From: Tubiluchus corallicola | Taxonomy: Eukaryota; Animalia; Priapulida | Assembly (NCBI GenBank): GCA_030141605.1 | Contig: JAQGDQ010000377.1 | Coordinates: forward strand, 162,974-226,973 | Length of the DNA stretch: 64,000 nt | Reading direction: 5' to 3' | Part shown: piece by piece, positions 34,301 to 37,300 of the stretch | Position numbering within the stretch: position 1 is the stretch's first letter | Layout of the letters: each line of letters opens with the position of its first letter | Translations under genes and position numbers: made by a program | Notes under the pieces: model-generated | Database searches by the model: none | The model's input: the letters and a program-made list of their open reading frames with translations, nothing else | What the model was told of the DNA's origin: nothing

Positions 34301-37300
34301 CGAATAAAACAATTTTAAAAAAATAAATTATATAAAAAATGTAATTAAATGTGCTAACTATTGTAGCCTAAAGAATACACGATTAAAACAGAAAGAAATT
34401 AAAATTCATTTGCAAGACGAAGAGGGAGATTGCTAAAAAACTAGTATGCTGAGTGAATCATGTTTAGATAAATAAAAATACACAATACATATACAAAAAG
34501 AATAGAGAACGACCATTTTCGTTTTGTTTTTCTATTGTTAGTCATTTAGAACGGTTTAATAACATTCAAGAAAACAGAAAAAAAAATAAATGTCTCCTAA
34601 ATTGGTAAGGGAAGCCAGAGATGTTTTCTTGAAGGCACACCAGTGACGGCAGACTATTGGGTAGAAATGTCACTGAAATATTCATTTTGTCTTTTGCTTC
34701 CTGCCTACACATGTGCTGTTATTAATATGTTCAAATCCATTACTGGCAATGCAGTTTTACTTTGTTTAACGTCTGTTTGGAAAACAAAGAACATTCGTCC
34801 TTTCAGAGGAATAAAAATATTATTATTTTAATTATAAAGTAATATGAATAAAAATGTTACATAATTAAATACGTTAAACTATTATAGCCTAAACAATACA
34901 TTCAGACAAAATGTATTTTTGTTGTTCTTTCAGGTTTCTAACTATATTTTTACATTTTTTTTGGAATAATATCTGGTAAACTAGAACTGTGCTGTTAATG
35001 AATCTGGGAAACGTAAAAGCGGGGGGTTGCATGAAATGTAGGGTAATGTCGGACAGTTTTGCAGTGTAATGTCACACATGATTAACAGCAGTCGAACAAC
35101 TTTGTGGTTATGGCAATTAAATTCTTTTAAACATTTTGCAGTATGCGAGATTGACCAGTGGCAACACGAGAGAAATTTTATTGATTGCACATGTAAGCTA
35201 GGAAAATACCTTTTTGCTCAACATTGTTATTTCCTTGTATCCGCCAAAAACAAAACAGCATAATAAACTTGAATATGGTAATCACATGCGGATGCAAGTA
35301 TGCAAATCTCTAATCCTGAAATCACCATCCGGCTCTGAGTACCACAGTTCTACAAGTTTCCACAACATAAGCAATGCAGAAGGTTCCACAACACAAAAAT
35401 GTAGAGGTCACAAGCAACATGGAATTGTGTCAGTAAAAATAATTCAAAAGTAATGAACGCCAGCAAAAAAAAAACACCACATTAGAAAATTAGAAATTTT
35501 ACATTGTCAGTGTCACTTAAACTCAGATCTTTTGCTTTCCAGGAAGCTATGCTATTTATGTAAGTCAGATTATTTTGCTGTTACAAAGTTTTTTGAGTAT
35601 GATATCTTATATGTTATGACTTATTGACATTTTAGATATTAACGAATGTGATTCAAATCCTTGTCAACATGGTTCATGCAATAATCTTGTGAACAAATAC
35701 ACATGTACTTGTGATTTCGGCTGGACAGGAACAAACTGCGATAAAAGCGATAAAGGTGAAAACTGCAATCAAGAGTCTGCCAAAAAGATTTTACCATGCT
35801 TTTTCCCTCATAAACCTCCAAATCCTCATCGTAATGATACTTGGACTAATTGCGATTTTATCTTTTGCTCATGGCGCACAAAACAGGAGGCAGCTGATTG
35901 GTCTGCAAGGGTCAAATTCAAAGTGTATTCTATGACTATAAAGGAATATGCTGCTAGAGAGTTACCGGGAAATGAGTTTCTAGCTGGGATTAATGTTGTT
36001 AAATTATCTCTAGAATCGACACTAGTGGAACATTTGAGAGAAGCATTTGTTTATGACAAATTTAGACGCATAAAGCATGTAAAAATATTTAACAACGGCA
36101 GGTTACAGAATATACACTCTAAAGCATTTAGTAAACTTTCTGCTTTTCATACACTTGAGATTAAAAGCAATCCAAAATTGCTTTCGGTAAATTTTGACCT
36201 GTCCATCTCAAAATCCTTCCAATTATTTTCGCTCGTCGACAGTCCAAAAATACAACGGATTAATAAACCAGCACTATACAGAGACATAGATCCTGGGGAT
36301 GTTTCGTTCATTCTGAGAGGTAAGCATTGATCGTGAAATACAGGAAAAAACCTTCATTTACATGAAGCTAAAATTACCTTGAAATGTTGTGTCACCTACA
36401 TACTGCGTAACTCATAGAAATTACGTTTGCAGCATTTGCATCTGTCAAAAACTTGAAACTCCAACAAAGTGGCGTTTTCGGAGCTAAAAAACAATAGTAA
36501 TAGATCAGGAAGACAATAACGCGTATGTGGGCTGCATAAACGGGTACATTGAAATCAATATAAAAATTTTTTATCTATTCCCCACCCCCTCCAATCCGGA
36601 TGCTACGTAATTTTTTATTTTATATCTCCAGCAACAGTGTCCCGACGGCGCCATTACATGACGTCACCACGTAAACGTAAATCAGGGAAAGAAAAGGAAA
36701 TTATGGTAAATTAGGTCCCAAAAAACTTTGCACACAAAATTATAGTACTTATTTCGCTTACCTACTGGAAAGACTTGTGTAACTAGAAAAGACAATTATT
36801 AGTTATTTAAAATTATTTCACCAATTGGTAAAATGTCGATAACTCAACCTCCAGGTGGTGCCAATCACAGCCAAAAATGTATTTTCAAACTTTTTGATAC
36901 GTAACAGTAATTTAAAATTTTACTTTGTTAGCAACATGTGTGCCACGAATGCTCTGATTATTTTTTTCAAACTTTAATCAATGTTATCTAAACTTGTTTC
37001 AAATGACCTACCATCAAAATGGCTGCGCTTAAATTTACACGTTTTATGCAGCGTTACAGCAGATGCAAGTTCTGCATGCAAATGGTAATATGTAAGTGGT
37101 ATAAAATTTCCAGATGAATTTTTCAAGTTTCATATAAGTGGAGGGTTCTCTTTTGCTTTAAAGCAAGTTTATATAAAGTTGTAAAACTGCATGTGAAGAA
37201 TTGTGAAAAAGCACAAAGCATACGGAAGTCTAAATTATCTAATATTGTTAGTAAGATTTATGAGTGTGCCCAAACGTCAGCAACAAAACTAGGCACATGA

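Follow-up and report, generated by a model that had tools for sequence, protein, structure and literature searches.

A composite EGF-LRR exon created by an in-frame join, and the candidate two-headed protein it would encode

We found that a single exon of an LRR-EGF gene in Tubiluchus corallicola reads in frame from an EGF domain into an LRR head, and that the junction between the two parts is a real molecule, shown in one individual only. In a rearrangement with a 2-base overlap, the beginning of an EGF intron would have become attached to an LRR exon at its first cysteine codon, without loss of the frame. The resulting 684-base stretch is likely to serve mainly as a single read-through exon that ends at the stronger donor, 36320, and the product would then carry two different LRR heads with seven EGF repeats between them. 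Expression of the gene and dominance of the downstream donor are the steps that we infer. With slightly better than even confidence, we read the sequence as a read-through composite exon whose main product is this two-headed protein.

The window, the whole stretch of 64,000 nucleotides that was analyzed, is intron-rich DNA of animal type with 33.8% G+C and zero N. It contains one apparent gene on the + strand (15669-62098), whose order is LRR head 1, a cap exon, six single-EGF exons, the composite exon, a second cap exon, and thirteen EGF exons. The first coding exon (15669-16314) is an open reading frame with a signal-peptide-like N terminus (about 15669-15755; hydropathy peak 2.9), a cysteine cap, and about four LRRs (Pfam LRR_8, E=2.8e-10). 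The start codon is flanked by A at -3 and G at +4, and the donor of this exon is CAG/GTAAGC. It is followed by the LRR C-terminal cap exon of head 1 with a Thr-rich linker (19626-19784), recognized from its cap motif and without a Pfam match, and by the six phase 1-1 single-EGF exons (22717-32743; starts at 22717, 26711, 27471, 30751, 31978, and 32627). Downstream of the composite exon lie the LRR C-terminal cap exon of head 2 (37912-38079; 168 bases, splice sites intact, no stop) and thirteen further phase 1-1 single-EGF exons (41025-62098), which include the unfused paralogues 46134-46244 and 47461-47571. A 23-exon model comprises 1270 codons without a stop when two EGF exons whose acceptors are altered and a pair of decayed remnants are left out. 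The gene continues beyond the last EGF exon identified, and no stop or membrane-anchor exon was identified up to the window end. A candidate exon of this kind between the two modules was rejected, as its hydrophobic stretches look, by eye, like repeats or off-frame sequence.

The gene has 20 intact EGF exons, each a single-domain phase 1-1 unit, and these units have multiplied through intronic recombination. An EGF-bearing 3-kb block (22028-25029) is 92-96% identical to 58914-61814 in the other module and represents an EGF unit recently copied into module 1; part of 21406-22012 recurs at 25030-25390. Decayed EGF exons were seen at 21286-21399, 33870-33975, 44942-45052, and 62830-62930. The first has its acceptor AG changed to TG (21284-21285), with an in-frame AG 24 bases upstream, and the third has AC where the acceptor AG is expected, while stops or frameshifts mark 33870-33975 and 62830-62930 as remnants. 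A dispersed repeat about 470 bases long occurs in both orientations, its copies 84-93% alike; five lie within introns (23632-24102, 29100-29565, 42690-43159, 45154-45608, and 60360-60833) and one shorter copy lies upstream (7765-8074). Also upstream are exons of a trypsin-family protease gene on the + strand (1785-6583; Pfam Trypsin, E=1.7e-10 and 4.9e-08) and, about 1.2 kb before the start codon, a 2.9-kb array (11592-14492) of 223 copies of a 13-base unit with 97% matches.

The EGF-LRR junction

The original prediction placed an in-frame EGF-to-LRR fusion exon at this site, and its coordinates all check: behind an acceptor that precedes 35636, 35638-36318 encodes 227 residues without a stop. 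The EGF part (35636-35755; Pfam EGF, E=8.1e-05) belongs to the same subfamily as the exons at 46134 and 47461 (tree clade 95/93), and the motif said to be common to these paralogues, GATAAAGGTGAAAA, was found 3 times in the window, at 35749, 46238, and 47565. The EGF exon reads through 10 bases of its former intron (35756-35765), which contain the old donor AAG/GTGAAA and code for G-E-N-(C), and enters the LRR exon with the frame kept, so that the breakpoint indeed lies about 10 nucleotides into the old intron. LRR head 2 (35764-36319) ends at the new donor GAG/GTAAGC. As had also been proposed, it is missing its signal peptide; identity to the module-1 LRR exon begins at 35764 (paralogue position 15756).

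To the left, the exon follows the 47461 paralogue as far as 35765, and to the right it follows the module-1 LRR from 35764 on. The overlap consists of TG only (35764-35765), with which the first cap cysteine codon begins. The homologies that flank the join (34636-35753 with 46519-47578, and 15756-17811 with 35764-37750; BLAST E=0.0 in both cases) far exceed chance, and at the join the sequence switches abruptly between two different parents, as is characteristic of a chimeric exon. The fused EGF also carries 9 extra bases directly before the old donor that are absent in both paralogues (46134 and 47461). They form an imperfect 9-base tandem repeat (35737-35754; 8/9 alike) that reads CDK-SDK, its second copy having Ser in place of the spare Cys, which points to a duplication of CDK followed by a Cys-to-Ser change.

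To place the join among its alternatives, we enumerated the 408,918 ways in which the 47572-48204 intron could be joined to the first LRR exon. Only 5,689 of them (1.4%) are open in frame, and in 239 (0.06%) the frame is open, the hydrophobic core is lost, and the first cysteine is kept. The actual join is among the latter, which suggests retention by selection, the 0.06% figure being subject to ascertainment because the join was flagged for being in frame.

Contigs from three DNA runs bridged the join with zero substitutions and at least 31 bases on either side. Record 14 of run X2 spans 35657-35894 with 0 differences, record 17 of run X4 spans the same positions with 0 substitutions and 2 gap letters, and record 4 of run X1 spans 35657-35799 with 0 differences at a depth of 248, which falls within the 200-282 of the other long X1 pieces listed. 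X1, X2, and X4 are one sample, maybe the source of the window, and not independent individuals. Near-identical repeats abound in the region and the bridging runs may come from the source sample, both of which would suit an assembly error. We nevertheless give that explanation next to no credence, because the join is crossed in all three runs at an X1 depth like that of neighboring unique pieces and because both of its sides differ from their in-window paralogues.

Run X3, consulted as a second individual, covers introns and thus behaves as DNA. None of its 5 records matching 35560-35960 bridges the join, in contigs that show presence and not absence. X3 contains a 47461-type EGF that continues into a normal intron, plus a third LRR head, and leaves 31403-32004 and 33510-33810 uncovered. 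Polymorphism of the fusion between individuals is only a lead. In the same run, one 601-base contig folds back, with a third LRR paralogue in minus orientation, 82 letters that did not align, and then 35835-36058 on the plus strand with 0 differences. Its structure reflects an inverted rearrangement in another sample or else arose as an artefact of the library or the assembly. Run X5 gave 3 records matching the window, each under 90% alike. Run X6, guessed to be RNA, gave 16 partial matches, and none of the 8 pieces listed lies on the composite exon, which is neutral on expression.

Origin and divergence of the two LRR heads

The LRR part had been taken for a duplicate of module 1 itself. This could not be established, as the sample has no fewer than three LRR heads and the interiors of the modules lack collinearity. 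The third head was found in runs X1, X2, X3, and X4 at 35764-36058, with a hypervariable cap loop of its own. In X1 and X4 its 5' end is a different one (loose ends at 35764) and reads as if a signal peptide ended there. It is unfused and present in the same sample as the fusion, and the LRR head family has more members outside the window. Over the LRR exon, X1 depth sums to several times the depth of unique stretches, a value that is not a copy number.

Intron divergence amounts to 0.063 just downstream of the LRR exon, 0.085 ahead of the cap exon, and 0.074 ahead of the EGF exon, compared to 0.137 for the older paralogue 46134. The similar divergence on both sides, with the two ends of the unit equally diverged, fits one tandem duplication. 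Such an event should also leave the interiors collinear, which they are not: close homology is confined to 15756-19798 versus 35764-38093 and to the 34636-35753 pair, plus short patches, and five module-1 EGF exons are without a close counterpart in module 2. Homology at the unit ends only, together with these unmatched exons, fits two older paralogous genes fused by deletion, and the likeness of the heads fits their having been kept alike by exchange. We consider an internal tandem duplication and a deletion between two tandem paralogous genes about equally probable. The 2-base overlap speaks for repair by end joining or by template switching, and not for homologous exchange. Two further routes were rejected: an LRR-cap cassette inserted cleanly into the EGF intron, as there is no match to the 47582+ intron after 38093, and the creation of an intron inside the composite exon, where 0 of the 3 pyrimidine-preceded AG sites are in frame with the old donor.

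The two heads are identical at 129 of 187 aligned residues (69%). Head 2 has no stop or frameshift, its cap cysteines are intact, and 2 of 16 framework positions are changed. The exposed LRR strand positions, which were assigned by LRR motif after the alignment had been seen, differ in 14 of 20 cases as compared to 22 of the 93 other columns (Fisher p=1.3e-4); the LRR register was checked against LRRC15 and VLR-A alignments. Divergence at amino-acid-changing sites reaches 0.185, about threefold the 0.063 of the next intron (p=5.5e-13), a baseline that gene conversion may have lowered. Four-fold sites in unchanged codons differ at 3 of 48 positions. Gaps in the exon protein alignment are whole codons, whereas 4 of 14 intron gaps are multiples of 3. 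The plain NG86 ratio of the heads is 1.12 (bootstrap 0.76-1.82) and thus not above 1. Together, the sequences suggest a diversifying recognition family of LRR-EGF proteins, and by analogy, from the divergence pattern, a role in non-self or microbe recognition may be proposed. A single-sequence AlphaFold model reached a pLDDT of 31 and was left out of the conclusions.

Selection on head 2 may predate the fusion if head 2 evolved as a separate gene, and the sample does contain a third head that is unfused. In one rival reading the old donor dominates and head 2 is effectively intronic, the fusion being a recent deletion allele in which the remains of a neighboring paralogue, with signs of selection older than the fusion, were trapped. 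The non-collinear module interiors, as expected of long-separate genes, and the persistence of decayed EGF exons (44942, about 21286, about 33870, and about 62830) are in keeping with such a remnant. We regard it as quite improbable, since a join with the frame kept, the signal peptide gone, and the first cysteine preserved belongs to the rare class described above, the fused EGF has changes of its own including the 9-base repeat, and head 2 has remained free of stops and frameshifts. Rapid exon turnover and the several decayed EGF exons could also indicate that the whole locus, or the fused allele, is silent. That is very unlikely given the open 23-exon model, the bases around the start codon, and the ratio of 0.50 for the cap exon, although its interval, 0.26-1.09, includes 1. 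The reading that we prefer is an intact head 2 as part of the main product.

Competing donors of the composite exon

Both donors are of phase 1, as predicted, with the old GT at 35756, the new GT at 36320, and one common acceptor. The old donor has 5/9 U1 consensus matches and no +5G, as compared to 7/9 with +5G for the new donor. All 4 LRR and cap donors have +5G, and the cap exon 37912-38079 combines an intact acceptor with a 7/9 donor. The 9-mer of the old donor is identical to the donors of 46134 and 47461. Among the EGF-exon donors (window positions 21399-62098), which are related and not independent and two of which come from exons with altered acceptors, +5G is found in 0/22 and -1G in 22/22. 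The old donor, which does not differ in type from the other EGF donors of the gene, is probably competent. The weakness of these donors could let EGF exons be skipped and the stalk vary in length.

The prediction that the old donor has been retained holds for its sequence, with 10/10 bases identical to the paralogue, but this is no evidence of a purpose behind it: introns here diverge by 7.4%, and at that rate ten unchanged bases would be met by chance with P about 0.46. Likewise, the proposed 5' splice choice that includes or drops the second head is backed by the frame compatibility of the donors, but it would not suffice by itself. Use of the old donor alone would produce an EGF followed by the orphan LRR cap 37912-38079, and a clean one-head form would need this exon to be skipped too. 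From the nature of LRR solenoids, an orphan LRR cap is unlikely to fold well.

Read-through is favored by the strength of the new donor and by the 9-base repeat, which avoids a spare cysteine. The old donor is most likely a passenger, with minor use at most. In the excerpted text of a study on human competing donors (PMC9225289), the stronger site is the major one in 86% of events; the same excerpts state that exon-defined cases with near-equal strengths and long introns prefer the upstream donor and that strength counts less if the alternative exon exceeds 250 bases. The introns that flank the composite exon are 2892 and 1592 bases long, and the choice is between a 120-base and a 684-base exon, so the long introns and the size of the alternative exon speak against read-through by these human data and make some use of the old donor plausible by analogy. 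In favor of read-through, a passage from a second source has the intron-proximal donor favored when bound (PMC3413131).

Substantial use of both donors, giving one-head and two-head isoforms, is the strongest competitor, one that we still hold to be unlikely. It gains from the shared phase of the donors, from five tested downstream exons that are all multiples of 3 without stops, from the 9-mer common to the 46134 and 47461 donors, and from the preference for the upstream site seen with long introns and a 120- versus 684-base choice in the quoted human material (PMC9225289). It loses by the chance expectation for donor retention, by the greater strength of the donor at 36320, and by the poor folding expected of an EGF joined to an orphan cap whose exon has strong sites. 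The more elaborate proposal, that in a fast-evolving and previously undescribed family of invertebrate LRR-EGF recognition proteins a single non-homologous join made both a second ligand-binding head and a ready splicing switch, by which cells choose the one- or two-head form through the old EGF donor with linked skipping of the cap exon, appears decidedly doubtful. Read-through would likely equip a surface or secreted recognition protein with two different binding heads.

Relation to known systems

Protein, HMMER, and Atlas searches yielded no close homologue of this LRR-EGF gene. Head 1 had 2 weak matches among 614 candidates in longer proteins, the fused exon had 8 matches among 88 candidates, all covering 15-32% of the exon and with EGF annotations, and short proteins offered zero candidates for a homologue. 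HMMER returned 1269 matches, and among the 150 matches listed the identity was 27-42%, with generic LRR similarity. The Atlas search led to animal extracellular LRR clusters, and 73 pattern matches in metagenomes included none that was confirmed. A literature search by title and abstract start, a weak one in that subscription journals are little covered, found nothing describing this LRR-EGF family or a germline donor stranded in this way.

Lamprey variable lymphocyte receptors vary at exposed strand positions, and they resemble the heads described here in having a short capped LRR with variation at such positions. Lamprey VLR-A was among the best PDB sequence matches (E=1.8e-09). The similarity is generic to LRRs over about 60 residues and, in contrast to these receptors, the present protein has a long EGF stalk and the locus shows no sign of somatic assembly from cassettes. 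The locus suggests that LRR-EGF genes with diversifying heads form a multi-copy family, which may be considered for a role in recognizing microbes or non-self.

In classical exon shuffling, EGF modules move as phase-symmetric (1-1) exons, and the 20 single-domain phase 1-1 EGF exons found here conform to this scheme. The LRR first coding exon differs in that it has no acceptor of its own and became internal by borrowing the acceptor of the EGF exon. The locus documents, at base resolution, a route outside classical exon shuffling, an intron-to-exon join by which an acceptor-less first exon becomes an internal module through its neighbor's acceptor. The unfused paralogues alongside serve as controls for the fate of the stranded donor.

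Among proteins with related parts, Slit is described, in the excerpted text of PMC10199209, as having four LRR regions followed by EGF repeats, and LRR-Ig-EGF proteins are described from sponges in part of PMC6043800. As far as these excerpts go, both have capped extracellular LRR regions with EGF repeats in common with the present gene. The order here is different, with an LRR region, seven EGF, a second LRR region, and at least 13 EGF, and the heads are fast-evolving and multi-copy. The four tandem LRR regions that precede EGF in Slit are replaced by two, with seven EGF exons between them, and no laminin G or Ig domain was seen in this gene. The nearest published parallel that we found is amphioxus FrLRR, reported in the same excerpts (PMC10199209) as a transcript that reads through two genes, one folate-receptor-like and the other Slit2-N-like, with a GPI anchor predicted. 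FrLRR binds bacteria, and its authors propose illegitimate recombination. It shares with our case an invertebrate LRR region behind another domain. Here, in contrast, the fusion is in DNA, within one exon, and with EGF partners.

As for the join itself, end joining with microhomology is named in excerpts of PMC3449122 as a source of duplications and deletions and of chimeric genes, with human haptoglobin and Drosophila Sdic cited. The chimeric and partial gene duplicates treated there resemble the present exon in that a low-homology DNA join made a new frame from existing gene parts. What sets it apart from them, to the extent covered by that text, is a break 10 bases into an intron combined with a break inside an exon, which gave a composite exon enclosing a complete old donor. 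The formation of this exon is a case of known chimeric-gene formation, with an unusual intron-to-exon join geometry.
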